From an uncultured Gammaproteobacteria bacterium (GTDB lineage Bacteria > Patescibacteriota > Patescibacteriia > Magasanikbacterales > UBA922), in NCBI GenBank assembly GCA_964447765.1, contig CAYUTO010000002.1, positions 148,316-212,315 of the forward strand: a DNA stretch of 64,000 nucleotides, read 5' to 3'. Position 1 is the stretch's first letter. Each line of letters starts with the position of its first letter. The notes beneath the pieces are model-generated. The model was given only the letters and a program-made list of their open reading frames with translations. It was not told the DNA's origin and made no database searches. Positions 1,783 through 38,162 of this stretch are shown one piece after another. Made by a program: the position numbers and the translations under genes.

Positions 1783-1802
1783 ACAACGCATTTCGCGTAA
1801 AG

Positions 1803-1898
1803 CTTTGAGTAAATAGCGACGTACTCAAAGTTCAATTCAACCAAGTCGCGGTAGGCAGGACTCGCTGGTGAAATACACTAGCTGGAGTCCTGCCTACC
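1803..1898 (+). other. Two strong GC-rich stem-loops directly after the gene-1 stop. One has a 9-bp stem (1803-1830) and one a perfect 14-bp stem (ggtaggcaggactc / gagtcctgcctacc, 1850-1898). Neither has a U-tract.
   Basis: The inverted repeats were read directly. They could be a 3' mRNA stabiliser or a Rho-dependent/processing site. Function is not established. Confidence 0.4.
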
Positions 1899-2049
1899 AC
1901 TCCAACATATCTTTATCAACATTCAGAACTCAGATTACAGTGAGCGACTAGTGAAAAATTGGTAAAGAGATGTGGGAATGAAAATTGCAAGTCCATCGAA
2001 AGATGGTTCGATGTTACCCTAACCGCGTGGACAGAAATGTTACGCGCGG

Positions 2050-2076
2050 AAAAAACCCGCGTATGCGGGTTTTTTG
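2050..2076. terminator. Rho-independent terminator, probably bidirectional: A-run, cccgc-gtat-gcggg, T-run.
   Basis: The sequence aaaaaacccgcgtatgcgggtttttt has a GC stem, a 4-nt loop, and flanking A and T runs. Confidence 0.6.
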
Positions 2077-2164
2077 AAAACTATCTCACACTCTTGCAAC
2101 ATGAATATGTGGTGTATCAAGAGTGGGAGAGAGAATTTTTTTTACAACACCCACGGAGAAGCTC

Positions 2165-3157
2165 ATGCCTACTTGGTTTCTTATTTTGATGGCACTGCTC
2201 CTCGGAGCATGCCAAGATGCAGTTGTCGGAGGAATCCGGCAGCTCGACGAAACCTCCAACCTCATGTTGTCAGAAGACAGTCGAGATACCTGGGTCGCGG
2301 AAGATGCCTACCCGGACACCATGATCGAGGATCCAACGATCGTGACTGATGCAACTCCCTACGACACCACTTCTGAAGTGGATACGAGGGACGTGGCAGA
2401 CACGGTCGCGGAAGTCGACGTGATCATTCCGGATTCAACTCCGGAGACGATCGAAGACATCGGACAAGAAGTCGTAGATACGACCGTGCCAGAAACCATC
2501 GGGGATACTGCGTCTGTACCTGATACGGTACTCGAGGTCGATACTGCTACGCCGGAGTGCGAAGATGACTTCGGTTGTGAAGATGACGACGACTGTACTC
2601 TCGACTCCTGCGAGAATTTCTCGTGCGTGCACGAGGAGAATACTTTGTGTGTCGCAGATACTGATGGTGATGGAATCGTTGATATCGATGACGTCTGTCC
2701 GCTGCAGCCCGAGTACTTCGATTACTTCGAAGACGACGATGGTTGTCCCGAGGCAGATCAAGATCATGATGGCTATACTCCTCTCGAAGGAGATTGCGGT
2801 GATGATCCGTCTCTCGGGAACGACCCGGCATCGTTCTGCTGGAACGAGTATGATGGCTACAATCTGCGCATACACTTCGGTGTAGGTGCAGACGAGCGGC
2901 CGTCGTGCGACTTCTACTACGACGATGGCGAGTTTGTCGAAGGAGTGTTCTTCTTCGAGACCAATGGTGCATTCCTGATCGGCCCGCACATCGCGGGGAG
3001 TGATACTCCGGGTGACGGAGTGGACCAAGATTGTGACGGGTCAGCAGACGATCCAGGAGAGTACGGACTCACGGAGCCCGACTGCATCTGGTGGCTCTTC
3101 GAAGACGACTCTAAAGAGGTCTCGTGTTGGTGGATGGAATTCGTCCCCACACCCTAG
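2165..3157 (+). CDS. High-GC, very acidic (D/E-rich) secreted lipoprotein (family member 2). It has a classic lipobox LLLGAC and a thrombospondin type-3 / calcium-binding-like DTDGDGIVDIDDVCP motif.
   Basis: The ORF track gives 2123-3157. The ATG at 2165 (MPTWFLILMALLLGAC) is preceded by GGAGA at -8. Composition and codon usage are high-GC. The C-terminal region only loosely resembles the shared family domain. Confidence 0.7.
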   Translation: MPTWFLILMALLLGACQDAVVGGIRQLDETSNLMLSEDSRDTWVAEDAYPDTMIEDPTIVTDATPYDTTSEVDTRDVADTVAEVDVIIPDSTPETIEDIGQEVVDTTVPETIGDTASVPDTVLEVDTATPECEDDFGCEDDDDCTLDSCENFSCVHEENTLCVADTDGDGIVDIDDVCPLQPEYFDYFEDDDGCPEADQDHDGYTPLEGDCGDDPSLGNDPASFCWNEYDGYNLRIHFGVGADERPSCDFYYDDGEFVEGVFFFETNGAFLIGPHIAGSDTPGDGVDQDCDGSADDPGEYGLTEPDCIWWLFEDDSKEVSCWWMEFVPTP

Positions 3158-3167
3158 ACCTGCAGCA

Positions 3168-3234
3168 CGCGGGGAGGAAAGCGCTATATACGGCTAGCCA
3201 TACGTGGCTTCCGATAGCGCCGACCTCTCCCGCG
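3168..3234 (+). other. Nested GC-rich stem-loop after the gene-2 stop. The outer arms are cgcggggagg / cctctcccgcg, the middle stem gcgctat/atagcgc, the inner stem agcca/tggct. There is no U-tract.
   Basis: The inverted repeats were read directly. Confidence 0.4.
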
Positions 3235-3251
3235 TACACTTACTCTATCGT

Positions 3252-3285
3252 TTGACAGTTCCTAGTTTTTATGCTAGGTTATAAT
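3252..3285 (+). promoter_or_regulatory. Promoter region for lipoprotein gene 3. It is homologous to the gene-4 promoter (TTGACA, 17 nt, TAGGTT, then an overlapping TATAAT).
   Basis: It aligns base-for-base with the gene-4 promoter around ...gctag[ga]tta...tgtattttgaa. The -10 is weaker than consensus. Confidence 0.4.
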
Positions 3286-3612
3286 GTATTTTGAACTTCG
3301 CATTTCGGCTGTCTGTACTATAAAAATAGTACAGGTGTACGGTATGCGGCACTTGAAAAATATTCGAGTGCTGGATCTTTGAAAAAATAGAAACGCACAG
3401 TCCAGATAGGAACTATTCGTCTGCCACAGTGGCAAGGACGTATGTACTATCGAGAGACTGTAAAGGAGGTATAGACAGCAAAGGTTTTGCTGTCTAGAAA
3501 TGTGGGTATCCTTAGAGTACAAGTCCGGATAAACAGTCGTCACAAGTCGTGGCGAGCATGTGAAATCTGGATGAACTGCCACACACCAAACACACGTGGC
3601 AAGGGGAATATC

Positions 3613-5442
3613 ATGAAGTTCAATACCAAGCCCATCATCCTGATGGGCTCCGCTCTGCTCGCACTCGCGAGTCTGAGCAGTGGGTGCGCTGATCACACGC
3701 CGGATGAGCTGGTCGTGGTCCAAGCGCCGGTCGTCGACATCGACAACGACGGAGTTCTCGACAATCTCGACAACTGCGACGATGTGCCGAACGAAGACCA
3801 AGCTGATACCGACAACAACGGTGTCGGTGATGCCTGTCAGGCAGACGACGACAGCGACGGTCACCTCGATGGTGCCGACAACTGCCCGCTCGTTTCGAAC
3901 AGTGACCAGCACAACCACGACGGCCCGGGCAACCTCAACTCGATCGTGACGACCGACACCATGGGTGACGCGTGCGATCCCGACGACGACAACGACGGGA
4001 TCTGCGATCAGGATGTGCCGGAAGGTACGGTTGGATGCGTCTACTACGACGATCATCCGGACAACTGCGAGGGTACGCCCAATCCGTTGCAGGAAGACCT
4101 CGACAACGACTACTTCGGCGACGCCTGCGACAACGACTGGGATGGTGACAACGTCCACAATGACGATGACACCTGCCCGTTCCTGCGCAACCAGGGTGAA
4201 GGACCGCAGAAGGACTCGGACAGCGACGGCGACGGCGACCTGTGCGACGATGATGACGATGGCGACGGTATCCCCGACGTCAGCGACAATTGTCCTCTGC
4301 ACTGCAACCCCGAGCAGGTCAACATGGACACCAGCGACGGTAACACCGATACCGAGGGAGATATCTTCGGCGACGAGTGCGACACCGATCCTGATGGCGA
4401 CGGCGTCATGAACTTCCACATGTGGCAGATGCCGCCGTGGTCGTGCGATGACGACGACAACTGCACGGTCGATCTCGACTGCGGTGACGACGACAACTGC
4501 ACCGACGACTGGTGCTACATGCCAGAAGATGGCAACGTCACCGCGAACTACTGGACCTGCCAGAACACCATCGACCTCGAGAACGAGGGTTGTATGGAGC
4601 CGCAGTGCTCCACCAACACCGACTGCCCGAGCGATGGTAACCCGTGCACCGACGAATGGTGCGACATGGGTGTCTGTGCGGTCTTGAACAACACGGCATC
4701 TTGTGCCGACTCCGACCTCTGCGATGGGGCCGAAGTCTGCGCCGGTGGTGTGTGTACGGACCAGGCGGATCTGGTCTGCAACGACAACAACTCCTGCACC
4801 GACGACACTTGTGTCCCGGCTACGGGTTGTTCCTACATGAGCGACGACACGAACGTGTGCGTCGACGCCAACCTCTGTAACGGCACTGAGACTTGCGTCT
4901 CGGGCGTCTGTACCGATCAGGCGGATCTGAGCTGCAACGACGAGGATGGCACTACGGCCGACTCGTGCGATCCCTCCACGGGATGCGTGCATACTCCGAT
5001 CGGAGGAGCGTGCACGGTCAATGCGAACTGCAACGACGGTGATCCGTTGACCTACGACACGTGCGTCTCGCTCGTCTGCCAGTATGCGCCGGGCATTCGC
5101 GTGCAGGTCTCGTCGACCGATGTGTCGGAGGCTTGGCAGGTCAACTTCTACTACAACGGCACGACGATCTCCGGCAACCTGCCCTTCGACGGCACCTTGC
5201 CGAAGACTCAGTCCTGTGACTGGGGTGTCGATCTCGCGGTCAATCGTCCCAGTACCAACCTGTACTGGGATTGCAACCCGGGGTTCCCCTCGAAGTCGAC
5301 CTTGACCGTCATGGTCAACGGCGTCACGAAGACGAACCAGTTCATGCAGCGCGCTTCGGCATGCGGCAATGCTGCACCGGGCAACCTGTACCTGTCGGAC
5401 GAGACGGGGGACAACGACCTCGGCTGCCCGGCCGCTCCTTAG
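3613..5442 (+). CDS. High-GC secreted lipoprotein (family member 3). It has a signal peptide with lipobox LSSGC, a long array of thrombospondin type-3-like calcium-binding repeats (D.D.DG..D..DNCP...N.DQ.D), Cys-rich CxDxNxC repeats, and the conserved C-terminal family domain.
   Basis: The ORF track gives 3487-5442. The ATG at 3613 (MKFNTKPIILMGSALLALASLSSGC) is preceded by AAGGGG. Repeats include DNDGVLDNLDNCDDVPNEDQADTDNNGVGDAC. The C-terminus reads ...SCDWGVDLAV...WDCNPG...VNG...NLYL...LGCP. Confidence 0.8.
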   Translation: MKFNTKPIILMGSALLALASLSSGCADHTPDELVVVQAPVVDIDNDGVLDNLDNCDDVPNEDQADTDNNGVGDACQADDDSDGHLDGADNCPLVSNSDQHNHDGPGNLNSIVTTDTMGDACDPDDDNDGICDQDVPEGTVGCVYYDDHPDNCEGTPNPLQEDLDNDYFGDACDNDWDGDNVHNDDDTCPFLRNQGEGPQKDSDSDGDGDLCDDDDDGDGIPDVSDNCPLHCNPEQVNMDTSDGNTDTEGDIFGDECDTDPDGDGVMNFHMWQMPPWSCDDDDNCTVDLDCGDDDNCTDDWCYMPEDGNVTANYWTCQNTIDLENEGCMEPQCSTNTDCPSDGNPCTDEWCDMGVCAVLNNTASCADSDLCDGAEVCAGGVCTDQADLVCNDNNSCTDDTCVPATGCSYMSDDTNVCVDANLCNGTETCVSGVCTDQADLSCNDEDGTTADSCDPSTGCVHTPIGGACTVNANCNDGDPLTYDTCVSLVCQYAPGIRVQVSSTDVSEAWQVNFYYNGTTISGNLPFDGTLPKTQSCDWGVDLAVNRPSTNLYWDCNPGFPSKSTLTVMVNGVTKTNQFMQRASACGNAAPGNLYLSDETGDNDLGCPAAP

Positions 5443-5443
5443 A

Positions 5444-5646
5444 ACCTCTCCTGCCTCGGCAGGAGACACCACGAAGCGATGTATGATTCGCTTCTGTAGG
5501 TGACGTTCGACGACGATCATACAACAACCCGGGGAAGTGCGCGTGCTACGGCACCCGCTTCCCCCTCTCTACTCTGAATTCAAGTACGATCTTGAAGATA
5601 GAGTAAAGAATAACAAAAAACTCCTGAGAATATTCAGGAGTTTTTT
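5444..5646 (+). repeat. Copy A of a ~200-bp conserved structured 3' element. It has five hairpins and ends in a terminator. The second copy is at 8229-8428.
   Basis: It is near-identical (a handful of substitutions) to 8229-8428. Hairpins include ctcctgcc-tc-ggcaggag and gaagcga-tgtatgat-tcgcttc. Further hairpins are the nested ggggaag...[gtgc-tacg-gcac]...cttcccc and ttcaag-tacgat-cttgaa. The last is ctcctga-loop-tcaggag followed by T6. Confidence 0.7.
5615..5646. terminator. Bidirectional Rho-independent terminator: A6, ctcctga-gaatat-tcaggag, T6. It forms the 3' end of repeat copy A.
   Basis: The stem-loop is flanked by A-run and T-run. Confidence 0.7.
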
Positions 5647-5934: not shown

Positions 5935-8205
5935 ATGTACAGCAATCGCAACTCCATCGTCGCGCTCGTCGCGACGACCCTACTCATGGGGCTCATGAGC
6001 ATCTCGGCGTGCGAAAAGCACGACGACGGCAGTACCACCATCGTCAACAAGGAGGACCTCGGCCCGCAAACCGAGGCAGGTGCGCTCGATCTCGGGTTCT
6101 GCTCGATCAACTGGGACCAGACGCACACGTGCGTCGAGCTCGACTGTCCGGCATTCGGCGTCGAGTTCGAGCTCTGCAACGGTGCACCGGGACAGGGCTG
6201 TACGCTCGGTGCCAAGGTCGGTACCTGTGCTCCGCTCACGTGCGGCTCGCAGACCGTCCAGGTCTGCGACGGACCTCCGGGTCCGCAGGGCGAAGTCGGA
6301 CCACAAGGTCCGGCGGGTGATGCTGGTGCAACCGGTGAAGTCGGTCCGCAAGGGGAAACAGGTCCCCAGGGTCCGGCAGGCGACGCAGGTGCTACGGGTG
6401 AGGTGGGTCCAGAGGGGCCACAGGGTGACACGGGTCCGCAAGGTCCGTCGGGTCACAACAGCCTCATCCGTCAGTCGCCCGCGGGCGCGAACTGCCCCTA
6501 CGGAGGCACGCTCATCGAGAGCGGTGTCGACGATGGGTATCCGAGTGGAACGGCGGACAACGGTGTCCTTGAGGCAGACGAGGTCGATCACTTCTCCTAC
6601 GTCTGCAACGGTGCGCCAGGCCAGAATGGCTTGAGCTACTCGTGCTCGATCGGCGAGCTCATCGGTGAGTGCCGCACGTTCTCGTGCGGTCCGACGACTG
6701 CAGATCGGATTCAGCAAGTGAGGTTCCAAGTCTGCAACGGTGAGACGGGTCCACAAGGTTCTCAGGGGCAGCAGGGTCAGGCTGGTGAAGACGGTACGAG
6801 CTACTCGTGCTGGTTCGGTGGCTATGACGGTCAGTGCCGCACGTTCTCGTGCGGTCCGGACATCGACATGGATTCGATGGATCAGGTGATCGACAACTCG
6901 ATCGAGATCTGCGACGGCGAAGATGGACAGGACGGCGACAGCTGCTCCGTCTCCAAAGAAGATGGCTGCGCGACGATCTCGTGCGGTCCGGAAGGTGAGA
7001 TGTCGCTTTCGTGGGAATCAGAAACGATTTGCGACGGCGATTCGTGCTACTTCGGTAGCGAAGATGTCAAAGTCATGACCCTGGTCGGGGGCACCGAGTG
7101 TGTGTCGCTCTGCTGCGGCGTGGGTAATGGCGCGCATTGCGTCGACATCTGCGACGGCGAGAACTGTTCGGTCAGTCCCAAGGAGGACGGCTGTGCAGAG
7201 GTCTGCTGCAGTGGCGACTGCGTCGACATCTGCGACGGCGCGCCCGGCGGCTGTCTGAACGACGGCGAGTGTGCGAACGAAACCTTGTGCGACGGTGTCG
7301 AAGTGTGTGATCAGGGCATCTGCAGGCCGGGTACGCCCGTCACCTGCAACAACAACAATGTATGCGATGGTACTGAGACCTGCAATCCGGGAACCGGAAC
7401 CTGCAGCTCGGGCACCTCGCTCACATGCACTCCCGATGACAACCCGTGCACCGATACGGTGTGCGACGCGGTCCTCGGGTGCACGCACGTGAACGACAAT
7501 ACAAACACGTGCCTCGATGGCAACGTCTGCAACGGTGCAGAGGTATGTATCGCGGGTGTGTGTACAGACCAGGCGGATCTGGTCTGTGTCGACGCCGATC
7601 TCTGCGACGGTACCGAGACTTGCAACCCTTCGACGGGATGCAGCGCCTCGGGAACGCCGCTCAATTGCGACGACAACGACATGTGCACCACGGACAGCTG
7701 TGTCTCCGCAACGGGATGCGCTCACGCTCCGGTGGTGTGCGACGACATCGATCCGAACACGACGGACTCGTGCAATCCTTCAACGGGATGCGTGCACACT
7801 CCGATCGCTGGGCCAGAGATGCTCACGATCAAGGTGACCATTCCCGCGCGCGGAAGCCCCTCGGCAACGCCGGCGGGTGATGTGCGCTTCATCTGGGGTT
7901 CGACCTTCAACGACGGGGCACATCCGGCAAATGCCGGGAACGCCTACACGGTGACCCGGTCGATCGAGAAGTCGCAGGCCTGCCTCTGGGGCGTCGACAT
8001 CACGGTCGCCAATCCCGGCACCTCGCTCTTCTGGGACTGCCCCCTCAACGGCAATCCCGGTACGAAGTTCGATCCGAATCGTCTCCAGACGTGGGTCAAC
8101 AACGTCGAGAAGGTGGGTGTCCCGAAGCAGGACGGCAGCCAGTGCAGCGGCCAGGGTCCAGGTAATCTGTACCTCTCGCCCGCACAGCTCGGCTGTACGC
8201 CCTGA
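5935..8205 (+). CDS. High-GC secreted lipoprotein (family member 4). It has lipobox MSISAC, collagen-like G-X-Y tracts ([31 protein letters not shown]...), ICDG[EDA] Cys repeats, the same CxDxNxC Cys-rich repeats as gene 3, and the conserved C-terminal family domain.
   Basis: The ATG at 5935 is preceded by AAGGAAG at -8. The C-terminus reads ...[10 protein letters not shown]...WDCPLNG...VNN...NLYL...LGCTP. Several 20-40-nt stretches are near-identical to gene 3. Confidence 0.8.
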
Positions 8206-17936: not shown

Positions 17937-19091
17937 TCAGAGGCCGAGTGGGCAGTTTAGGTCTCCTCTTGAGATGAGGAGAGATTTGCCGCAGGGAGCC
18001 TCCGGATCGTCCACGATGGTGTACCGGCTGGCTTGAGGAACTTCCTCGTGGAGTGGATCACCGTCAATCATGATCGATTCAATCGTATCCGCGATCAGCG
18101 GGTTTCCGGGGCATTCGTACCACCCAGATTCGGGTATGTTATCGCTCTCGAGTTCGAAGTCGAGTCGAATTCCCTCACTGCATGCCTCGAGAACCGGGAT
18201 GTACATGATGTACGGTGCTCGTCCCAGCCACGTTAAGTTGTCGAACCTGAGCCACACTATATCTTGGTTATGAGGTACTTTTAAGGTGACCTCAAGGAAG
18301 ATGTAGGTGCTGAAGATGCATCCAGTGAAGGGGTCGCACCGGTCCTTCGTACCTGGATTGAAATCGGCGCATATGATGTGTTCATTCTCGCATACGCTAC
18401 TTTTGCACGTCGCGTACGTACATGCATTGAAGTCGTCGCATTCGTTGGCATCAGAACATGCACTCCCGTCTGCGACGGTGCATACACCGCCGATGGCGTC
18501 AACGCATTCTTCATTGGAGAGACAGTCTGCATTGTTGCTACACTCACGTGCTGGCGGTGCTGGAAGTGCACAACCTCCGATCGTGTCGCAGGTGGAATTG
18601 CCAGGACACTCGAGTGGTTCTCCCCATATACAGTATCCAATCTTACCATGCTCCGAACATCTCTCTTCACCATCGCACGCATTGTGGTTATTGCAGTGCC
18701 AGTCCTGCGTACATTCCAGGTATTCGACGCAGGAGCCCTCGACACAGATGAAGGCGTTAGAACCGAGTTTCGTGCAGTCAGCGCTGGTGTTACATGATAT
18801 GTCGAGCGCATCTCGTCCGTCCTGAGACGTAAGAACGTCAGAGGGGCCGAGTGAGTCCAGGGTAGACGAACTCGAGTCGGTGATATCAGTCACCGTGTTG
18901 CTGTCAGAGGGTGAACTGGTGGCGTCAGGTTCTCCGGTGGTGGTGTCAGGAACCCAGATCGTGGTGGGGGAAGTATCACGCGTGGAAGTGTTACCACTCA
19001 CGACGCTCCCGATCTTCGGGTCGATGTCGCAGCCAACGAAGGCTGTGACCATCATCATGACTGAAGTAAGAACTGAGAAGATGTATCGCAT
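17937..19091 (-). CDS. Intermediate-GC secreted lipoprotein (family member 5). It has lipobox AFVGC, a Ser/Thr/Asp-rich linker, Cys-rich CxDxNxC repeats, and the conserved C-terminal family domain.
   Basis: MRYIFSVLTSVMMMVTAFVGCD. AAGGAG sits 7 nt upstream on the minus strand. Repeats (CDDFNACTYATC, CDPFTGCIFS) resemble genes 3 and 4. The C-terminus reads ...ACSEGIRLDF...WYECPGNP...IDG...LNCPLGL. Confidence 0.75.
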   Translation of the reverse strand: MRYIFSVLTSVMMMVTAFVGCDIDPKIGSVVSGNTSTRDTSPTTIWVPDTTTGEPDATSSPSDSNTVTDITDSSSSTLDSLGPSDVLTSQDGRDALDISCNTSADCTKLGSNAFICVEGSCVEYLECTQDWHCNNHNACDGEERCSEHGKIGYCIWGEPLECPGNSTCDTIGGCALPAPPARECSNNADCLSNEECVDAIGGVCTVADGSACSDANECDDFNACTYATCKSSVCENEHIICADFNPGTKDRCDPFTGCIFSTYIFLEVTLKVPHNQDIVWLRFDNLTWLGRAPYIMYIPVLEACSEGIRLDFELESDNIPESGWYECPGNPLIADTIESIMIDGDPLHEEVPQASRYTIVDDPEAPCGKSLLISRGDLNCPLGL

Positions 19092-29849: not shown

Positions 29850-30743
29850 ATGAGGAATGATAAGGTGAAAGTCGCAATTATTGGGACAGGTAATATCGGA
29901 AGCGATCTGCTCTACAAAGTTCAGAGATCGCCTTTTTTGCGATGTGGCTTATTCACGGGGCGCAATCAGGATTCAGAAGGTATCAGGCGCGCTAAGCGGA
30001 TGGATGTAACAGTGTCCTGTGATTCGATACGTGCAATTGAAGAAAATCCTGACTGTTGTGAAGTGGTGTTCGATACTACGAATGCGGAGTCTCATTTGAT
30101 TCATGCTCCGATATTACAGAAACTGAAAAAATTTACGATAGATCTCACTCCTTCACGTGTAGGAACCTTGTGTGTTCCGTCTATTAATATTGTTGAGGCA
30201 CTAGCAGCTGATAATGTGAATTTGATTACCTGTGGCGGACAGTCGCTTATTCCAATTGCAAAAGCAATATTGGATGTTCATCCGGAAACAGAATATGTAG
30301 AGGCTGTAGGGAGTATCGCTTCAAAATCTGCTGGTCCTGGAACTCGTGCGAATATTGAAGAATATTTACAGACAACGGCGCGCGCGATAGAGAGTTTTTC
30401 GGGTGTGCCTCGCGCAAAAGCAATTCTCATTCTCAATCCTGCAGAGCCGCCTGTATTGATGAGAAATACTCTGTATGCCAAAATTTCCAATCCTAATATT
30501 CCAGAATTGGTTAGAAAAATTACGGAGACTGTTGGTGCTATACAAGCATATGTGCCGGGATACCGCCTTGCTGCAGGACCTATTATTGAGAAAGATAGTG
30601 TGATGGTGATGGTTGAAGTGGTGGGACAGGGAGATTTTTTACCCACCTATGCTGGGAATTTAGACATTATCACCTGTGCAGCTGTTCGTGTTGCTGAAGA
30701 GTATGTAAAACATAAGTCTCAAATGGTTTCCTCTATTGTATGA
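29850..30743 (+). CDS. Acetaldehyde dehydrogenase (acetylating), DmpF/MhpF family.
   Basis: KVAIIGTGNIGSDLLYKV at the N-terminus. The catalytic-Cys region ITCGGQSLIPIAKAI is characteristic of acylating acetaldehyde dehydrogenases. Confidence 0.8.
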   Translation: MRNDKVKVAIIGTGNIGSDLLYKVQRSPFLRCGLFTGRNQDSEGIRRAKRMDVTVSCDSIRAIEENPDCCEVVFDTTNAESHLIHAPILQKLKKFTIDLTPSRVGTLCVPSINIVEALAADNVNLITCGGQSLIPIAKAILDVHPETEYVEAVGSIASKSAGPGTRANIEEYLQTTARAIESFSGVPRAKAILILNPAEPPVLMRNTLYAKISNPNIPELVRKITETVGAIQAYVPGYRLAAGPIIEKDSVMVMVEVVGQGDFLPTYAGNLDIITCAAVRVAEEYVKHKSQMVSSIV

Positions 30744-31756
30744 AAAAACCTATTTTTTTTGACTCAACTTTACGCGATGGTTCGCACGCGATTCAACATC
30801 AGCTTACTTCGGATAATGTGAGGGAATATTGTAAAATGGTGGATAATGCGGGACTCTATACCGTGATTGTCGGTCATGGAAATGGTCTCGGTGCCTCATC
30901 AGTACAGGTGGGTCTGTCACGTACATCTGATCAAGAATTACTTGCTGCAGCTCGATCTGAGTTGAAGGTTACAAAGCTGGGCGTTTTTATATTGCCGGGA
31001 TTTGGAACAATTGAAAATGATTTAGTTCCAGCACTCGAATTAGGAGTTGATCTCGTCTGTGTTGCGTCTCACTGCACAGAAGCTGATGTGACGAAACAAT
31101 ATATTAGTCGGGTAGCAAAGGAGCAAAAAGAGGTATATGGTATTCTCATGATGTATCATATGACTACAAAAGAGCGTCTCCTCGCAGAGGCAGAAAAAAT
31201 GGTAAGCTATGGGGCTATCGGTATCATCATCATGGATTCAGCAGGATCTTCAACACCAGGATTAGTTCGGGAAACCATCTCGTATCTGGTTGAACACCTG
31301 CAGGTACCTGTGGGATTTCATGCGCATAATAATCTGGGAATGGCGATTGGAAATACATTGATAGCACTTGAATCAGGTGCGACCATTGTTGATGGTACGG
31401 TACGTGGATTTGGTGCTGGTGCAGGAAATTGTCAGATTGATGTGATGGTGGCATTGCTTGAAAAAATGGGACATACTACGGGAATTAATGTATATGATTT
31501 GATGGACGCAGCTGATAAGGTGGTGAAAAAAATTATGACCCAACCACAAGAGATTGATTCAGTAAGTATTGCGAGTGGTATGGCAGGTGTATTTTCAGGA
31601 TTTGCGCCACATGTGAAGCGAGCTGCGGAAAAATTTGGGGTTGATGCGCGAGATATTTTTGTTGAACTCGGCAAAAGAAGAGTTGTTGGCGGACAAGAAG
31701 ATATGGTGATTGAGGTGGCGATTGAATTATCAAAAAAGAAAAATGTATTATCATAA
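30740..31756 (+). CDS. 4-hydroxy-2-oxovalerate aldolase-like (DmpG/MhpE family, DRE-TIM metallolyase).
   Basis: PIFFDSTLRDGSHAIQHQLT matches the DmpG active-site region (D.TLRDG.HA..HQ). It overlaps the upstream DmpF-like gene by 4 nt, as in dmpFG operons. Confidence 0.8.
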   Translation: MKKPIFFDSTLRDGSHAIQHQLTSDNVREYCKMVDNAGLYTVIVGHGNGLGASSVQVGLSRTSDQELLAAARSELKVTKLGVFILPGFGTIENDLVPALELGVDLVCVASHCTEADVTKQYISRVAKEQKEVYGILMMYHMTTKERLLAEAEKMVSYGAIGIIIMDSAGSSTPGLVRETISYLVEHLQVPVGFHAHNNLGMAIGNTLIALESGATIVDGTVRGFGAGAGNCQIDVMVALLEKMGHTTGINVYDLMDAADKVVKKIMTQPQEIDSVSIASGMAGVFSGFAPHVKRAAEKFGVDARDIFVELGKRRVVGGQEDMVIEVAIELSKKKNVLS

Positions 31757-31759
31757 TGT

Positions 31760-33556
31760 ATGAATGTCGCTGATTTTATTTTCAAATACTTTGGTGAACG
31801 TGGTGTAAATCACGTCTTTACGATTACCGGAGGGCACGCGATGTTTTTAAACGATGCGGTTGCTAAAAACAAAAATTTTACATACACCTGCCCTCATCAT
31901 GAGCAAAGCGCAGCTATGGCTGCTGAGGCATATAGTCGTGTGGCAAATAAGCCAGGAATTGTAATGGTTACTGCAGGTCCTGGAGCAGTGAATGCGCTCA
32001 CAGGGGTCGTAGGTGCTTGGGTAGATTCTTCACCAATGATTGTTATTTCCGGCCAATCAAATTTACCTATCGTGCAGTACGCAGAAAAAACAGATATTCG
32101 ACAATTTGGTGTGCAGGGGATTAGTATTAGAAAAATAGTGACCCCAATTACCAAGTATTTTGTAACAGTGGATGATCCAGCTCGGATCGGAGAATATGTG
32201 GCTGAAGCATGGAAACAGGTAACGACAGGCAGGCCTGGTCCTGTGTGGATTGAGGTGCCAGTCGATATGCAACGCTCAGAAGTACCACAATCAGTAATCG
32301 ATGCTTATGGGTCGCCAGAAGACATATTAATTAAACCTGAGGAAGCATCGAAGGAGTTGTTAGAAAAAGTCGCTGCAGTATATGAGCGCATTCAAAAAGC
32401 AGAGCGACCACTGTTTATTTTTGGACAAGGTGTTCGATTGTCCGGAGGAATTTCAGCTTTTGAAGCAGTGATTAAAAAAATAAAAATTCCACTTCTAACA
32501 TCACGATTGGGTTTGGATATTATTACGAGTGATCATCCACTGTATGCGGGTCGTCCAGGAACCTATGGAGAGCGTTCAGCAAATTTTGCTGTGCAAAATG
32601 CTGATTTGATTATTGCAATTGGATCTCGTCTCACCGTTTCTCTGACCGGGTATAATGTAGCCGATTTTGGTCGTAATGCAGAAAAAATTATTGTCGATAT
32701 TGATCAAAAAGAATTAGAAAAACCAGATTTAAATATTGTATTACCCGTATTAGCTGACGCAAAAGTGTTTTTAACTGAATTAGCGGCATATGCTGAAGAT
32801 AAGTCGAGTATTGAAAGACCTGAATGGGCGGAGATTTGTCAGAATTGGCGAAAAAAATATCCTGTAGTATTACCTTCGTATAAAGATGAAAAACCAGTGA
32901 ATTCGTATTACTTCACCGGTCGTTTAACTGAGCTCACTCCACCGGGTGCAAACATTCTCGTTGATACGGGATCTTGTTTTCATGTCGCAGCACAAACATG
33001 GGTAATAAAAGAAGGGCAGAGATTTTTGACTACCGGAGGAATTTCTACTATGGGGTATTGGGTGGCAGGTATCGGATCATGTATTGCCGCAGGAAATAAG
33101 CCCACTATAGTGATTACTGGAGATGGTAGTTTGCAAATGAATTTACAGGAGTTAGCAACTGTCAAAATAAATAATTTGCCTCTGAAGATTTTTATTTTTA
33201 ATAACAATGGTTATTTATTGATGCGCCATACGCAACGTAATTTTTTTGAAGGTCGTATGATTGGGGAGAGTCCGGCGTCCGGCGTCTGGTGCCCTGATTC
33301 TCTAAAAATTGCAGAAGTGTATGGTATCAAAGGAGTTCGTATTTCCTCAGTGGATGAGGTAGATCAGAAAATTAAAGAGGTACTAGACCATGACGGACCT
33401 GTAATTTGTGATGTGATGACTCCTGAATGGCAATTTCTCATGCCTCGGGTGACATCGGAAAAAGGTCCTGATGGAAAAATGTTTTCGAATCCTTATGAAA
33501 ATATGTTTCCATTTTTGAGTAAAGAAGAGCTTGATGAAAATATGATTGTAACCTAA
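31760..33556 (+). CDS. Thiamine-pyrophosphate (TPP)-dependent enzyme of the acetolactate-synthase large-subunit family (YerE-like candidate).
   Basis: Canonical ALS/TPP N-terminal domain: GVNHVFTITGGHAMFLNDAVA...CPHHEQSAAMAAEAYSRVANKPGIVMVTAGPGAVNALTGVVGAWVDSSPMIVISGQ. It is 598 aa and has a GDGS TPP-binding region. Confidence 0.75.
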   Translation: MNVADFIFKYFGERGVNHVFTITGGHAMFLNDAVAKNKNFTYTCPHHEQSAAMAAEAYSRVANKPGIVMVTAGPGAVNALTGVVGAWVDSSPMIVISGQSNLPIVQYAEKTDIRQFGVQGISIRKIVTPITKYFVTVDDPARIGEYVAEAWKQVTTGRPGPVWIEVPVDMQRSEVPQSVIDAYGSPEDILIKPEEASKELLEKVAAVYERIQKAERPLFIFGQGVRLSGGISAFEAVIKKIKIPLLTSRLGLDIITSDHPLYAGRPGTYGERSANFAVQNADLIIAIGSRLTVSLTGYNVADFGRNAEKIIVDIDQKELEKPDLNIVLPVLADAKVFLTELAAYAEDKSSIERPEWAEICQNWRKKYPVVLPSYKDEKPVNSYYFTGRLTELTPPGANILVDTGSCFHVAAQTWVIKEGQRFLTTGGISTMGYWVAGIGSCIAAGNKPTIVITGDGSLQMNLQELATVKINNLPLKIFIFNNNGYLLMRHTQRNFFEGRMIGESPASGVWCPDSLKIAEVYGIKGVRISSVDEVDQKIKEVLDHDGPVICDVMTPEWQFLMPRVTSEKGPDGKMFSNPYENMFPFLSKEELDENMIVT

Positions 33557-33557
33557 C

Positions 33558-34439
33558 ATGCAAACAATACTTCTTACAGGCGGTAGTGGTTTTATTGGTC
33601 GAAATATTATCGAACAATTGGGGGCTACATATACTATTCTCGCTCCAAGCCATCATGAGCTTGAGCTTACTGACACCAAAGCAGTCGAATCATATCTGAA
33701 ACAGCATGCAGTTGATCTGGTCATTCATAGTGCAAATAGGGGAGGATCACGTGCGGATGCCACACAAGCTGGGGTCGCAGCATCGAACCTTCGAATTTTT
33801 TATAACATCATTCAGGCAAAACAATATTACAAACGCTTGATTGTGCTTGGATCTGGAGCTGAATATGATAAGTGTTTACCTTTGAAACAGATTTCTGAAA
33901 TTTTTTTTGGTACGTCTATTCCTGCTGATGAATATGGGTTATACAAATATGTATGCGCCAGATATGCAGAGCAGGTTGACTACATCACACATCTTCGATT
34001 ATTTGCTGTATTTGGAAAATATGAAGATTATCGGATTCGATTTATTTCAAATGCTATTTGCAAAGCATTACTTGATTTACCAATTACGATTAAGCAAAAT
34101 GTAGTGTTTGATTACGTGTATGTTGATGATGTGGTTTCACTGCTTGATTTGATAATTGCTAACCCAACAAGTGAAAAGATTATTAATGTCGGGTCAGGAA
34201 TGCCTGTGGATCTAAAAACGATTGCAGAAAAAATTTTAACTATACTAGATAAAAAATTGCCTATTGTAGTTGGAAAATCTGGGCTTGGCAATGAATACTC
34301 GGCAGATATCGGACTCTTGAAAAAAACATATCCTAATGCTAAGGTTACCTCGCTTGATGTGGCGCTTCAAAGTTTAATCGATTATTATCGGCCTATTGCC
34401 GAAACGTTGGATACAGAAGCATTTCTCGCAGATATATAA
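33558..34439 (+). CDS. NAD(P)-dependent SDR-family sugar-nucleotide reductase/epimerase (RmlD-like in size).
   Basis: LLTGGSGFIGRNIIEQL Rossmann motif. It is 293 aa and lies in a sugar context. Confidence 0.6.
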   Translation: MQTILLTGGSGFIGRNIIEQLGATYTILAPSHHELELTDTKAVESYLKQHAVDLVIHSANRGGSRADATQAGVAASNLRIFYNIIQAKQYYKRLIVLGSGAEYDKCLPLKQISEIFFGTSIPADEYGLYKYVCARYAEQVDYITHLRLFAVFGKYEDYRIRFISNAICKALLDLPITIKQNVVFDYVYVDDVVSLLDLIIANPTSEKIINVGSGMPVDLKTIAEKILTILDKKLPIVVGKSGLGNEYSADIGLLKKTYPNAKVTSLDVALQSLIDYYRPIAETLDTEAFLADI

Positions 34440-34443
34440 ATAT

Positions 34444-35397
34444 ATGGAAATAAACAGAAAAAAATTAATTAGTATTGTCACTCCATGCTACAACGAAGAG
34501 TTGAATGTAGAAGAGTTGTATACTGAAGTAAAAAAAGTAATGACTGAATTGTCGCAGTATGACTATGAGCATATTTTTATTGATAATGCATCAGCTGATA
34601 AAACAGTCGACATATTGAAGCGTCTTGCTGCAGTAGATCATAAGGTAAAAATTATTGTAAATGTACGAAACTTTGGGCATATTCGCTCACCATATTATGG
34701 TGTGCAACAGGCACACGGAGACGCTATTATCCTTATGGCTTCAGACTTGCAAGATCCGCCGCATCTAATCAAAGAGCTAACACGAAAATGGGAAGAGGGG
34801 AATGATATCGTGGTTGCAGTAAAAAATAAAAGTGAGGAAAATAAATTATTATTTGCAGTTCGAAAAGTGTATTATACACTGATAAAAAAATTGTCTGAGG
34901 TGGAACAGATAAAGAATTTTACCGGATTCGGGCTTTATGACCAGAAATTTATCAAAGTACTTCGCACCTTTGATGAGCCATACCCGTATTTCCGCGGACT
35001 AATTACTGAAATTGGTTTTAAACGCGCTGAGATTACGTATGTCCAGCCTACACGCAAGCGTGGAAAAACCAGTAATAATTTCTATTCGCTCTACGACCTT
35101 GCAATGGTAGGATTTGTAAATCATTCTAAATTTCCGATTCGTCTCGCAAGCCTCATTGGTTTTGGTATGTCCATTGTAAGCTTGTTAGTCGCTGTGGTGT
35201 ATTTGATATACAAATTATTGTATTGGGATCGATTTGAGGCAGGGTTTGCGCCAGTAACGATTGGATTATTTTTCTTTGGGTCAATACAATTATTTTTTAT
35301 TGGTATTATCGGAGAATATGTAGGGGCAATTCATACGCAAGTAAAAAATCGTCCACTCGTTATTGAAAAAGAACGTGTTAACTTTGATTCAAAATAG
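34444..35397 (+). CDS. GT2 polyprenyl-phosphate glycosyltransferase (DPM1/GtrB/ArnC-like) with a C-terminal two-helix membrane anchor.
   Basis: ISIVTPCYNEELNVEEL...IFIDNASADKT and DLQDPP form the GT-A DXD region. The C-terminal TM helices are typical of GtrB/ArnC. The ORF track starts at 34396. The ATG at 34444 avoids overlap. Confidence 0.7.
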   Translation: MEINRKKLISIVTPCYNEELNVEELYTEVKKVMTELSQYDYEHIFIDNASADKTVDILKRLAAVDHKVKIIVNVRNFGHIRSPYYGVQQAHGDAIILMASDLQDPPHLIKELTRKWEEGNDIVVAVKNKSEENKLLFAVRKVYYTLIKKLSEVEQIKNFTGFGLYDQKFIKVLRTFDEPYPYFRGLITEIGFKRAEITYVQPTRKRGKTSNNFYSLYDLAMVGFVNHSKFPIRLASLIGFGMSIVSLLVAVVYLIYKLLYWDRFEAGFAPVTIGLFFFGSIQLFFIGIIGEYVGAIHTQVKNRPLVIEKERVNFDSK

Positions 35398-35415: not shown

Positions 35416-35445
35416 AAAAAATCAGGCCTCGAGCCTGGTTTTTTG
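35416..35445 (+). terminator. Rho-independent terminator: caggc-ctcga-gcctg, then T7.
   Basis: Hairpin plus T run after the GT2 gene stop. Confidence 0.5.
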
Positions 35446-35471
35446 AATATAAGTAATAGCGAGGTCAAATA

Positions 35472-35500
35472 TTGACCTTTTTGGTAGTTTGTGATAGATT
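35472..35500 (+). promoter_or_regulatory. sigma70-like promoter: TTGACC, 17 nt, TAGATT. The -35 lies within a small palindrome, ggtcaaatattgacc.
   Basis: Read directly. It is the same -10 hexamer as the gene-4 promoter. AAGGAGG lies 9 nt before the ATG at 35552. Confidence 0.6.
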
Positions 35501-35551
35501 CTTCTATCTTCTAGATCCACAGTGGGTCAGAAGTTTAAGGAGGATAGGATA

Positions 35552-36109
35552 ATGAGTCTTCAGGATGATATGGACGCGCTGTTGGGTGGAGTCGACCCAG
35601 CGAGCCCTGAGTACAAGGCCGTGGTGGCCCGCCTCATGAACAAGATCGACCCCATGATGCCGCTCGGTACGCCGCTTCATAGCGCCTGCGTTCGTCTGAA
35701 CGGAGGAATCGCCTTCGAGGCTGCCTGCATACGCCTGAGCCGCGATAATGGTAAGATCGAGGTGTACCTCAGGCGGCGTGGTGACAACGAAGATGCTCAT
35801 CCGGGGCAGTGGCATCTGCCAGGAAGCTTCGTGCGTCAAGGAGAGCAGATCGAGATCACTGCATGGCGGTTGGGCAAGGGAGAATTCAAGTCCCTGGTCA
35901 CTGACTTCCGGCACGTCGGCGACTTCAAGACTCCGGACGATCGAGGGGAGATCGAATCCAAGCTGTTCCGCGTCTGGCTCGACACTGGGCCGCAGATCGA
36001 CGAGCGCCATCAATGGTTCCCGTACGATCAACTGCCGGACAAGATGGTCGACTTCCACGCAGAGACACTGATTCCTGCTGCCGTGGAGTTCGTTCGTCAG
36101 GGACGCTAG
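35552..36109 (+). CDS. High-GC NUDIX-fold protein with a degenerate Nudix box (paralog A).
   Basis: HPGQWHLPGSFVRQGEQIEITAWRLGKGEF aligns with the Nudix G.W..PGG.VE.GE... segment, but the REUxEE catalytic residues are not conserved. GC-rich third codon positions contrast with the surrounding AT-rich genes. Confidence 0.6.
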   Translation: MSLQDDMDALLGGVDPASPEYKAVVARLMNKIDPMMPLGTPLHSACVRLNGGIAFEAACIRLSRDNGKIEVYLRRRGDNEDAHPGQWHLPGSFVRQGEQIEITAWRLGKGEFKSLVTDFRHVGDFKTPDDRGEIESKLFRVWLDTGPQIDERHQWFPYDQLPDKMVDFHAETLIPAAVEFVRQGR

Positions 36110-36187
36110 TCTCAGGCCTAGGAATCTACAACATAGGTTCCGTCCATCACCTCACAAGGGTGGTGGACGGGGCTCATAAATTAACTA

Positions 36188-36210
36188 GGCAACAGAATTG
36201 CCTTTTTTTG
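36188..36210 (+). terminator. Rho-independent terminator: ggcaa-cagaa-ttgcc, then T7. It is preceded by a 12-bp GC-rich stem-loop at 36139-36169.
   Basis: Read directly. Confidence 0.6.
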
Positions 36211-36224
36211 TTTGAAATGATAGG

Positions 36225-36848
36225 ATGAGAGCATATTTTAGCCAAATTGTTATGCCAAGAACGTCCTCAAAAAAGGTAAAGATGCGGAGCACTATTTCAG
36301 AGAAATTAGAACATTTTGGTATTACACCTCATGAGGTTATTGAGCTCTTTGAGAGTCTTGTGGAAAATACATGGAAAGATAAAGATAAGGAGCTCATACA
36401 TAGTGATAATTCTCTCGATAAAAGGTTATTCGAAGCAATTGCAAAACTTGGTATTTCAGTTGCACTCGAAGCTGTGCTATTGCGTACCAAAGGAGGGAAT
36501 ACTGAGGTCTTTATGACAAAGCGAGGGAAGTATGAAAGTTTTCCAGGGCAGTGGCATTGTCCAGGTAGTGTATTCCGTCCAGGCGAGTTTCCTCGTAATG
36601 TAGTCGACCGACTTGCAGACAAAGAATTCAAAGCAAAAATCACCCTTGAAAGTGATTGTGTGACTGATCTATTTATCAAAGAAATGCGCGGATGGTTTTT
36701 GTCACGAGTGTATCTGGTGAGTGTAGTAGGAAAGCCGACTTCAAAAGGAAAATGGTTTTCAGTTACCAAATTGCCAAAAAATACCGTTGCACATCATCAA
36801 AACTTTGTGATTCCAAAAGCAGTGAAGCAGTATAAAAAATTGAAATAA
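36225..36848 (+). CDS. Low-GC NUDIX-fold protein with a degenerate Nudix box (paralog B of 35552-36109).
   Basis: FPGQWHCPGSVFRPGEFPRNVVDRLADKEF is homologous to HPGQWHLPGSFVRQGE... in the upstream gene, at roughly 30-35% identity over about 140 aa. Codon usage is native AT-rich. The true start may be downstream, near 36282. Confidence 0.6.
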   Translation: MRAYFSQIVMPRTSSKKVKMRSTISEKLEHFGITPHEVIELFESLVENTWKDKDKELIHSDNSLDKRLFEAIAKLGISVALEAVLLRTKGGNTEVFMTKRGKYESFPGQWHCPGSVFRPGEFPRNVVDRLADKEFKAKITLESDCVTDLFIKEMRGWFLSRVYLVSVVGKPTSKGKWFSVTKLPKNTVAHHQNFVIPKAVKQYKKLK

Positions 36849-36851
36849 GCT

Positions 36852-38162
36852 ATGGACGACAAATTGAAACAACTATTGATTGAAGATTATAATGCTCGAT
36901 TTGCGGTAAAACCATTTGTTCCTGGTGTTTCAGTAGTTCCTGTATCTGGAAAAGTATTTGATACTGAGGAAATTATCAATGCGACCGAAGCAGTACTTGA
37001 AGGCTGGTGGACTGATGGCAAATATACTGCTATGTTTGAACATCGCATGGCACAGTGGCTTGGTGTAAAGTATGGTTGTTTTGTGAATTCAGGTTCGTCT
37101 GCAAATCTTATCGCCGTGACCGCTCTTACCTCAATGAAATTGCAAGAAAAAAGACTGAAACCCGGAGACGAAGTAATTACGGTCGCAGCAGGATTCCCAA
37201 GTACGGTAAATCCGATTGTGCAGAATGGATTGGTTCCTGTATTTGTCGATGTTGATCTAGGAACTTATAATGCGAACATTGAAGCTATCAAGCAAGCAGT
37301 GTCTCCGAAGACCCGGGCAATTATGATTGCTCATACTCTGGGTAATCCATTTGATCTAGGAGCAATCAAAGAATTATGTGACAAGCATGATTTCTGGCTT
37401 ATTGAAGACAATTGTGATGCCTTGGGAGCGACATTTAATGGTAAAAAGACAGGTACATTTGGGCATATTGCAACTTGTAGTTTTTATCCAGCGCACCACA
37501 TTACTACCGCAGAAGGTGGAATGGTATTTACGAATAACTCGAGACTGTACAAGATTATTGAATCAATCAGAGATTGGGGGCGTGATTGTTGGTGCGAAAC
37601 AGGTAAAGATAATACCTGTCAAAAGCGTTTTTGTTGGCAATTGGGAGAATTGCCTTACGGGTATGATCATAAATATATTTATTCAGAAATGGGTTATAAC
37701 CTGAAAGCTACTGATATTCAGGCAGCACTTGGGCTTGCACAATTTGCAAAACTGGATTCTTTTATTGAAAAAAGAAGAGAGAACTTTAACATCTTGTACG
37801 AAGGATTAAAAAAATTCGAAGAATATTTTATATTGCCATCGTGGCAAAAGGAAGTTAATCCAAGTTGGTTTGGGTTTCTGATTACGCTCAAAGACACTGC
37901 TCCATTCACACGCGATGAACTTGTACAATACTTGCAAGATAAAAAAATTGGAACCAGATTTTTGTTTGCAGGCAATATTTTGAGGCAGCCTTATTTTGTT
38001 GATCGAGAAATTGAGTATCGTGTGGTAGGGGAGTTAAAAAATGCTGACACCATTGTAAAAAACACGTTCTGGATCGGTGTATATCCGGGGCTTACCCACG
38101 AAATGCTTGAATACATTATTACGATTTTTGAAGAGTTTGTGAGCAAACGCTCTACCTTATGA
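36852..38162 (+). CDS. rfbH: CDP-6-deoxy-D-xylo-4-hexulose-3-dehydrase (E1; DdhC/RfbH/AscC-like). It is a PMP-dependent [2Fe-2S] 3-deoxygenation enzyme.
   Basis: DegT/DnrJ/EryC1 fold (VNSGSSANL...). FYPAHHITTAEGG has His-His where aminotransferases have the PLP lysine. The exact Cys spacing C-X57-C-X1-C-X7-C (EDNC...RDCWCETGKDNTC) is the E1 iron-sulfur signature. It is 436 aa. Confidence 0.8.
   Translation: MDDKLKQLLIEDYNARFAVKPFVPGVSVVPVSGKVFDTEEIINATEAVLEGWWTDGKYTAMFEHRMAQWLGVKYGCFVNSGSSANLIAVTALTSMKLQEKRLKPGDEVITVAAGFPSTVNPIVQNGLVPVFVDVDLGTYNANIEAIKQAVSPKTRAIMIAHTLGNPFDLGAIKELCDKHDFWLIEDNCDALGATFNGKKTGTFGHIATCSFYPAHHITTAEGGMVFTNNSRLYKIIESIRDWGRDCWCETGKDNTCQKRFCWQLGELPYGYDHKYIYSEMGYNLKATDIQAALGLAQFAKLDSFIEKRRENFNILYEGLKKFEEYFILPSWQKEVNPSWFGFLITLKDTAPFTRDELVQYLQDKKIGTRFLFAGNILRQPYFVDREIEYRVVGELKNADTIVKNTFWIGVYPGLTHEMLEYIITIFEEFVSKRSTL

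Follow-up and report, generated by a model that had tools for sequence, protein, structure and literature searches.

The n1 and n2 genes and their surroundings

The window analysed here is a stretch of 64,000 nt from an uncultured bacterium (GenBank assembly GCA_964447765.1, contig CAYUTO010000002.1, positions 148,316 to 212,315 of the forward strand), and the name is used below for the whole of that stretch. It carries a sugar operon in which two adjacent genes, here called n1 and n2, encode Nudix-fold proteins of very different base composition. The gene content of the window consists of glycan genes only, with no tRNA. In addition to the genes of Table 1, the window encodes glucose-1-phosphate cytidylyltransferase-like, CDP-glucose dehydratase-like and DmpFG-like proteins, a thiamine pyrophosphate (TPP) enzyme, a reductase, an MptA/B-type membrane transferase and a flippase. 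This gene set is that of a CDP-3,6-dideoxy sugar pathway, and the sugar is probably branched-chain. An earlier note on this DNA, made from the sequence alone, had placed the pair between a polyprenyl-phosphate glycosyltransferase (GT2) and the E1 enzyme of the pathway. Both neighbours are recovered by profile searches, the GT2 protein scoring 197 bits against PgfS and 112 bits against ArnC of NCBIfam, both under cut-off.

The n1 product has 185 amino acids (aa) counted from the ATG and would have 195 aa from a GTG at 35522. For n2, the longest open reading frame (ORF) gives 207 aa, and the start is ambiguous among 36225, 36252 and 36282. The public annotation of the protein takes 36282, and a related locus (L004, see below) has no ATG at the equivalent site; the true start is probably 36252 or 36282. 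The two proteins are homologous, as the earlier note had claimed (BLASTP: 34% identity over 139 aa, E 2e-19). Against the Pfam NUDIX profile (PF00293, gathering cut-off 21.1 bits), n1 scores 33 bits, and n2 scores 14.9 bits, below the cut-off, and is tied to n1 by the BLASTP match. AlphaFold (AF2) models of both show the alpha/beta/alpha Nudix topology with its loop-helix-loop, with a predicted local distance difference test (pLDDT) score of 85.7 for n1 and 85.8 for n2 and above 90 in the Nudix core. Hundreds of solved Nudix structures match the models in Foldseek (best E about 1e-8), and NCBIfam gave only weak sub-threshold matches to MutT, NudI and YfcD.

As the earlier note had described, n1 is GC-rich and n2 has the low GC content native to the locus: 0.593 with a third-position GC (GC3) of 0.71 for n1, against 0.39 and 0.32 for n2 (whole-gene values). 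In 300-nt windows, GC is 0.59-0.60 within n1 and 0.34-0.37 to either side, which makes the step a sharp one. GC at the first, second and third codon positions is 0.67/0.41/0.71 in n1, compared with 0.50/0.37/0.33 for the 28 other genes of the window. The codon use of n1 is inverted relative to the genome (TTC 9, TTT 0; AAG 8, AAA 0; CTG 8; CCG 7), and not one TTT, AAA, TAT or TTA codon occurs in the gene. The n2 protein is Lys-rich at native GC, and the position of its stop codon relative to the E1 start makes n2 part of the operon (Table 1).

Table 1 Features of the n1-n2 region, with positions in the window
Feature	Position	Strand	Remarks
GT2, polyprenyl-phosphate glycosyltransferase (PgfS/ArnC-like)	34396..35397	+	GC 0.36, native; Pfam Glycos_transf_2 1.3e-25
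GC-rich hairpin with T-runs on both sides, closing the GT2 gene	35423..35437	+	terminator scan; sequence
Inverted repeat AGGTCAA-ATA-TTGACCT, overlapping the -35 hexamer	35462..35478	.	read from sequence
n1 promoter TTGACC, 17 nt, TG-n-TAGATT	35472..35500	+	promoter scan, 9/12 matches plus TG extension
n1 leader with conserved motif (ATCCACAGTGGGTCAGAAG) and Shine-Dalgarno AAGGAGG	35501..35551	+	comparison with relatives
n1, 185-aa Nudix-fold protein, monocistronic self-contained unit	35552..36109	+	GC 0.59, GC3 0.71
17-bp GC-rich hairpin past the n1 stop, no T-run	36136..36174	+	fold of 36100-36290, z -3.7
n1 intrinsic terminator AGGCAACAGAATTGCCT then T7	36187..36210	+	terminator scan (hit 36187-36203 plus T-run)
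n2, Nudix-fold paralog, operon member	36225..36848	+	GC 0.39, native; stop 3 nt before E1
RfbH/E1, CDP-6-deoxy-D-xylo-4-hexulose 3-dehydrase	36852..38162	+	NCBIfam RfbH 701 bits, cut-off 423

Distribution and persistence of the GC excess

An exhaustive profile search placed 113 clusters in the family at E<=1e-30 and 750 at E<=1e-10. Loci of relatives were collected by pattern scans of one genome per species (18 loci) and of Joint Genome Institute (JGI) metagenomes (43 loci). All loci in the comparison together contain 74 distinct family domains. Forty of the 74 exceed their flanks by more than 0.10 GC (median excess +0.11), and in most long loci no other 480-nt window reaches the GC of the family member. 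The tandem pair recurs in the same operon, between the GT2 region and RfbH, in L004 (GCA_965084955.1) and in L005, to which L008 is identical. There the first copy has GC 0.59-0.61 and GC3 0.75-0.79 in loci of 0.38-0.39, and the second copy is native. In a neighbour-joining tree, the n1-type genes form one clade, all GC-rich, and the n2-type genes another, all native, while most of the remaining, single-copy clade shows an excess of +0.05 to +0.23. n1 and n2 are anciently diverged members of one uncharacterised Nudix subfamily. The ratio of GARP (Gly, Ala, Arg, Pro) to FYMINK (Phe, Tyr, Met, Ile, Asn, Lys) residues has a family median of 1.19 and is 1.44 in n1 and 0.64, below the tenth percentile, in n2. 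Therefore, n2 and not n1 is the compositional outlier of the family. The extreme case is found in a Magasanikiibacteriota locus of GC 0.37 (L017), where a member at 5161-5631 with GC 0.68 and GC3 0.95 precedes an n2-type copy of native GC.

The contigs that carry core-clade members all have a flank GC of 0.29-0.47, and many of them are labelled Patescibacteria; the sole GC-rich background among the loci is that of a distant outgroup. One family host is Parcubacteria GW2011_GWA2_37_10, a name that we take to code a genome GC of 37%. Word-indexed, profile and exhaustive profile searches of proteins, together with the genome and metagenome scans, turned up no close relative in a high-GC genome, and no family member was detected in viral contigs (viral scan) or in plasmids (tblastn). 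The earlier note had raised the prospect of the high-GC copy nesting in a high-GC clade; every close relative of n1 sits on a low-GC contig.

Synonymous sites show how the excess behaves over time. Between the n1 genes of L004 and L005, 42% of fourfold degenerate sites differ (26% by an exchange of G or C with A or T, S/W), compared with 35-39% in the neighbouring genes. GC at fourfold sites (GC4) is nevertheless 0.74 and 0.72 in these two n1 genes, against 0.29-0.33 in the neighbours. A two-state decay model, fitted by hand to the neighbours (S/W difference 0.28 of a maximum of 0.42), leaves 0.58 of an excess in each lineage, and under it neutral decay would demand an ancestral n1 GC4 of about 1.04. 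In the single-copy clade, syntenic pairs have reached synonymous saturation (50-73% of fourfold sites differ) and keep a GC4 of 0.48-0.67, against 0.28-0.41 in adjacent genes. Since GC4 has not fallen despite a synonymous turnover equal to that of the neighbours, the composition is being maintained and does not survive as a mere remnant. Judged from these sequence comparisons, n1 has a stationary high GC that is limited to the coding sequence (CDS), has been kept as long as the clade has existed and is no sign of recent import.

With a promoter, ribosome-binding site and terminator of its own, n1 forms an autonomous unit, whereas n2 is an operon member. The promoter, Shine-Dalgarno sequence and terminator named in the earlier note were all recovered by scans or in the sequence, the Shine-Dalgarno sequence at 35537-35543, 8 nt ahead of the ATG. 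The hairpin that closes the GT2 gene cuts n1 off from upstream transcription. In L004 and L005 the sequence of the promoter is preserved, even though the CDS that follows shows only 36-40% identity. The leader is near-identical in a further locus (L002) and recognisable in L004, L005 and L006. Its motif TCC-R-Y-AGTGG-N3-GAARG (35507-35532) recurs before the divergent n1-clade alleles of these four loci, of which L006 represents a different lineage. The inverted repeat over the -35 hexamer, a possible operator, is kept only in part in L004 and L005. In L002, L004 and L005, the stem of the hairpin past the n1 stop is maintained with G-U pairs and the terminator is identical. A comparison of the leader and the intergenic region with Rfam gave nothing near a gathering score. 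GC-rich family members elsewhere likewise stand as separate units with their own terminators. The stretch 36110-36260, which covers the spacer between n1 and n2 plus the initial codons of the longest n2 ORF, is almost identical in the window, L004 and L005, while synonymous sites of the flanking genes differ by 35-50% between these loci. This spacer may act as an element that regulates the entry into n2 and E1.

The same comparison reveals an exchange of alleles at the n1 site. Genes neighbouring n1 share 85-90% DNA identity between the window and L004/L005, and the n1 promoter, part of the leader, the 3' hairpin and the terminator are about 90% conserved. Between these flanks the proteins encoded by the n1 CDS share the 36-40% identity given above and the DNA is unalignable. 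One family protein, P0026, is a clean recombinant: it agrees with the window-type allele at 38 of its first 40 residues, and the remainder matches the L005-type allele at 35/40, 44/50 and 45/54 positions (about 86%). By this pattern of identities, homologous recombination exchanges n1 alleles, acting via the conserved non-coding flanks as well as inside the gene itself. Such an exchange in a surface-glycan locus points to diversifying pressure on the step in which n1 takes part.

A HAD hydrolase gene, similar to that of the glucose-1-phosphatase YihX (68 bits, under cut-off), lies directly upstream of n1 in L004 (6484-7155, minus strand) and L005 (6450-7064, minus strand) and is absent from the window. 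It is itself GC-rich (GC 0.54-0.56, GC3 0.67-0.71). Only 15% of its fourfold sites differ between the two loci, against 35-42% in the surrounding genes, which suggests a recent exchange of this segment.

Readings of the GC excess

We tentatively propose, at odds somewhat short of even, that a gene-specific and CDS-confined process holds this Nudix family 10-30 GC points above its hosts (GC3 excess up to 0.6), has continued through a deep radiation of bacteria that are low in GC and mostly belong to candidate phyla, and ceases once a copy becomes part of an operon, as n2 did. Two candidate causes are considered. One is GC-biased fixation linked to frequent recombination, that is, a conversion bias at a recombination hot spot; the other is selection on the composition of the coding sequence. 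The process might thus consist of selection for a GC-rich CDS free of A/T triplets in autonomous single-gene units, or of unusually strong GC-biased conversion at a hot spot. If the proposal is true, a gene can keep its composition as a maintained trait, and that composition then says nothing of its ancestry. The n1 system offers a means to separate selection on composition from biased conversion. Full-text literature searches returned no account of this GC pattern.

GC-biased gene conversion is said to have been proposed for recombining bacterial genes by Lassalle et al. in 2015. Such genes resemble n1 in combining raised GC3 with allele exchange and intragenic recombination. The n1 excess of +0.4 GC3 within a single CDS of about 560 bp differs in being far larger and sharper than the bacterial cases known to us. 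Other causes were examined. Amino-acid demand is ruled out because GC3 and GC4 are raised and because n2 has the same motifs at native GC. An overlapping antisense gene (ORF 35504-36058, minus strand) is ruled out as well, its frame being free of stops in only six of 36 GC-rich members. There is no gradient of GC from 5' to 3', GC3 being 0.59-0.62 in every fifth of the gene.

Three points count against a maintained, CDS-confined excess. The flank GC was taken from glycan clusters, which can be GC-poorer than the whole genome. To our knowledge, effects of GC-biased conversion in bacteria are far smaller than +0.4 GC3. Selection for a specific mRNA fold is unsupported, as the n1 mRNA is no more structured than dinucleotide-shuffled sequences (z +0.32).

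Among the alternatives to a maintained composition, recurrent import survives best, though we consider it improbable. Alleles of the n1 type would recombine repeatedly into the slot from a GC-rich source that has escaped sampling, for instance a mobile element or a different host, and each copy would be young. The swapping of alleles between conserved flanks, the recombinant P0026 and the unusually low divergence of the adjoining AcT3-HAD segment between L004 and L005 are all in keeping with this. Yet not one of the 74 members has GC-rich surroundings, and the viral contigs and plasmids are without matches. In addition, the pairs L004/L005 and L010/L020, like the syntenic single-copy pairs, have diverged to an extent that matches the genes around them, a pattern compatible with vertical descent.

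Atypical GC content or codon usage is routinely read as horizontal transfer, and the earlier note had taken n1 and n2 for one compositionally foreign and one ameliorated copy. n1 would then have been acquired recently from a high-GC donor and not yet ameliorated, with n2 as an old copy that had been. The GC contrast of 0.59 to 0.39, a codon use typical of high-GC organisms and a GARP-rich amino-acid composition agree with such an origin. The description as a foreign copy is contradicted by other results, and we regard recent acquisition as very improbable. Apart from the distant outgroup, the 18 genome and 43 metagenome loci contain no relative in a high-GC background; a GC-rich n1 occupies the same site in L004, L005 and L008; the whole n1 clade is GC-rich; and synonymous turnover has equalled that of the neighbours without loss of GC. 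The promoter, leader and terminator are AT-rich, native and conserved; any imported segment would therefore have to be confined to the CDS. The amelioration model for compositionally atypical, horizontally acquired genes, reportedly that of Lawrence and Ochman, likewise describes a gene-sized deviation in GC and codon usage. In n1, unlike in such genes, the deviation is clade-wide, sits at a conserved site without a donor lineage being found, and does not decay with synonymous divergence. The reading as horizontal transfer fails a direct test for n1, which is a concrete counter-example with a stable, heritable and family-tied deviation. An assembly or binning chimera, for which nothing speaks beyond the sharpness of the GC step, is next to impossible, since an independent Logan assembly (L001) is 100% identical over 1275 nt across the n1/n2/E1 junction and the same pattern occurs in dozens of unrelated contigs from different studies.

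The excess restricted to coding sequence is not unique to n1 in this genome. Four other genes of the window, at 364-1782, 2123-3157, 5935-8205 and 17937-19091 (the last on the minus strand), have GC 0.54-0.63 and GC3 0.59-0.76, and most of the spacers between them have a GC of 0.40-0.46. Three of the four products start with a signal-peptide-like N-terminus and two have collagen repeats; Cys-rich (Dicty_CTDC-like) repeats occur in 5935-8205 and 17937-19091.

The altered Nudix site and the predicted ligand

The segment G-Q-W-H-x-P-G-S-x-x-R-x-G-E given in the earlier note is present in both proteins (GQWHLPGSFVRQGE in n1 and GQWHCPGSVFRPGE in n2), and the REUxEE box that follows is indeed degenerate in both. 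Its register was set by gap-free alignments, a profile alignment to 2fml, which has the canonical RETKEETG, and an hhalign alignment to Escherichia coli GDP-mannose mannosyl hydrolase (GDPMH). The n1 box is S92..R95.G97-E98..R106-L107...E111-F112, its Nudix helix having the sequence R-L-G-K-G-E-F-K where n2 has R-L-A-D-K-E-F-K. The canonical GX5EX7REUXEEXGU is intact in neither (S..GE-x7-RLGKGEFKS in n1, S..GE-x7-RLADKEFKA in n2): in both proteins Ser replaces the initial Gly of the box, and the closing G-U is absent. In MutT numbering, E44, R52 and E57 are kept, E53 is replaced by Leu, and E56 by Gly in n1 or Lys in n2. Two of the three glutamates that bind metal in the canonical box have been lost.

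Across 179 family representatives, R76 is found in 177, R106 in 175, H169 in 175 and E111 in 173 (n1 numbering), and E98 is almost invariant. Position 107 is L, I or V in 175 of the 179, with Glu not among its five commonest residues, and position 110 is mostly R or K. Also nearly invariant are E56, H88, R95, R131 and G132, again in n1 numbering. The family signature is [ST]-x2-R-x-G-E-x7-R-L-x2-[RK]-E-F. The ratio of nonsynonymous to synonymous substitution rates (dN/dS) is 0.15-0.21 for n1 (0.15 against L002) and 0.10-0.15 for n2, so both genes are under purifying selection. On this pattern of conservation, the altered Nudix box is a conserved alternative site and not the product of random decay. 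Canonical Nudix pyrophosphohydrolases such as MutT, the ADP-ribose pyrophosphatases and CDP-Chase share with n1 and n2 the fold, the loop-helix-loop, E44, R52 and E57. In n1 and n2, by contrast, only R-L-x-x-[RK/G]-E is left of REUxEE, and the box lacks its final G-U.

The surroundings of the family tie it to nucleotide sugars. In the single-copy clade, the neighbours are mostly nucleoside-diphosphate (NDP) sugar dehydratases and reductases, nucleotidyltransferases, DegT enzymes and HMGL-like aldolases. Because such neighbours occur in this clade too, the link to nucleotide-sugar metabolism is family-wide, and this context backs the role that the earlier note had suggested for the pair from its position. 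We see an uncharacterised and well-conserved Nudix subgroup with a fixed non-canonical box, wired into deoxysugar pathways. The best explanation overall, which we give about even chances, is that n1 and n2 are an ancient Nudix pair with an NDP-sugar ligand and, for n1, a stationary GC content. The proteins would still bind an NDP-sugar, here the CDP-deoxyhexose of the operon, and would either cleave it by non-canonical chemistry or sense it. They probably act as a pair. Five natural two-domain fusions of family domains exist (P0034, P0035, P0038, P0041 and P0071, 374-413 aa), and these together with the conserved tandem order suggest that n1 and n2 work together. In several of the fusions, the second domain lacks even the PG and GE motifs, like a pseudo-dimer with one degenerate half.

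Within this explanation, non-canonical hydrolysis of the CDP-sugar of the operon is possible, with the odds leaning slightly against it. GDP-sugar glycosyl hydrolases have the box GX5EX7RLX2AEXGU, in which two Glu are replaced (PMC5389931). GDPMH (E. coli NudD/WcaH, Gmm; 1RYA, 2I8T) is likewise a Nudix protein encoded inside sugar-nucleotide and surface-polysaccharide clusters, the same two glutamates are replaced as in the n1/n2 family, and the gap-free alignment puts n1 R76, R106, L107 and E111 on GDPMH R37, R65, L66 and E70. The two also differ in several respects. Family members have Ser, Thr or Ala in place of the first Gly of the box, position 56 is mostly Arg or Lys where GDPMH has Ala, the box-terminal G-U is not matched in n1 and n2, and His124 has no family-wide counterpart. 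The nucleotide of the n1/n2 pathway is CDP and not GDP, n1 and n2 have an extra N-terminal helical segment, and no specific relatedness to GDPMH is seen in sequence or structure.

Several results weigh against a cleaved NDP-sugar. The effector domains of NrtR and AraR rank first both in Foldseek and in the profile search of the Protein Data Bank (PDB), whereas GDPMH reaches a PDB profile E of 0.36 and an hhalign probability of 11.6% over 47 columns, and is absent from the Foldseek top 50. A counterpart of the catalytic His124 of GDPMH is possible only in the n1 subclade of the window, where DERH(149-152)QWF can be matched by eye to DEQH(124)DDYRWL of GDPMH, a region that hhalign did not align. 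In n2 and most relatives, G-x-W-F stands in its place.

The main alternative, less likely than hydrolysis but a serious one, is that n1 and n2 are non-catalytic sensors of an NDP-sugar or sugar that report to a partner protein, as the Nudix effector domain of NrtR and AraR does. The best sequence and structure matches are NrtR (3gz8, 3gz5), AraR (5bs6) and 2fml; the PDB profile search is headed by 2fml, 3gz8 and 3gz5, and Foldseek by 3gz8 and 5bs6. Both proteins have lost two catalytic Glu. In the single-copy clade, the family gene usually stands alone on the strand opposite its neighbours, the layout expected of a regulator gene. NUDT21, with RLxxEI, provides a non-catalytic precedent (PMC5389931). 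NrtR and AraR (PMC2330246, PMC4666351; 3GZ5, 3GZ8, 5BS6) also have a degenerate Nudix box, and their 'RGW' motif is shared with n2. However, NrtR joins its Nudix-like effector to a C-terminal winged-helix DNA-binding domain, and n1 and n2 (185 and 188 aa) have no DNA-binding domain. In the models they end with the Nudix C-terminal helix (H167-182 of 185 in n1, H170-187 of 188 in n2), and no DNA-binding family of Pfam was matched. Shewanella NrtR keeps neither E53 nor E57, whereas the n1/n2 family keeps E57 almost without exception, and the near-invariance of E98, R106 and E111 suggests a preserved metal/phosphate site. Because Foldseek E-values are nearly flat across Nudix classes, the ranking of NrtR and AraR says little.

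It is improbable that n1 and n2 are still pyrophosphatases, which would split an NDP-sugar into nucleoside monophosphate and sugar-1-phosphate and leave the latter to a neighbouring HAD phosphatase. In favour are the GC-rich YihX-like gene directly upstream of n1 in L004, L005 and L008, which hints at a disposal route through the sugar-1-phosphate, and the GC-richer, unannotated 218-aa ORF directly upstream of the family member of another locus (L049). The Nudix-box glutamates E53 and E56, however, are missing throughout the family, and neither the window nor the majority of loci has the HAD gene. Whichever reaction or signal is involved, an NDP-sugar ligand is our preferred reading, and the activity of this subgroup could reveal a new control or proofreading of CDP-sugar pools in organisms of minimal metabolism.

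Some further features of the loci were recorded. In nine of them (L009, L011, L012, L031, L034, L035, L038, L042 and L046), the family gene stands alone on the plus strand amid minus-strand sugar genes, a layout in which read-through of the operon would yield antisense RNA of the family gene, in an excludon-like manner. The module for branching at C2 varies: the window (29850-33556) and L004 have DmpFG-like enzymes and an acetolactate-synthase-like TPP enzyme, and L005 has split transketolase subunits at the same place (1685-3414). From this difference in gene content, the sugar made probably differs between strains. The L010 locus contains a run of N. The carrier metagenome-assembled genomes bear the unconfirmed record labels Magasanikbacteria, Parcubacteria, Staskawiczbacteria and Saccharibacteria, with 'uncultured Gammaproteobacteria' for L006, L008, L010, L016 and L020.

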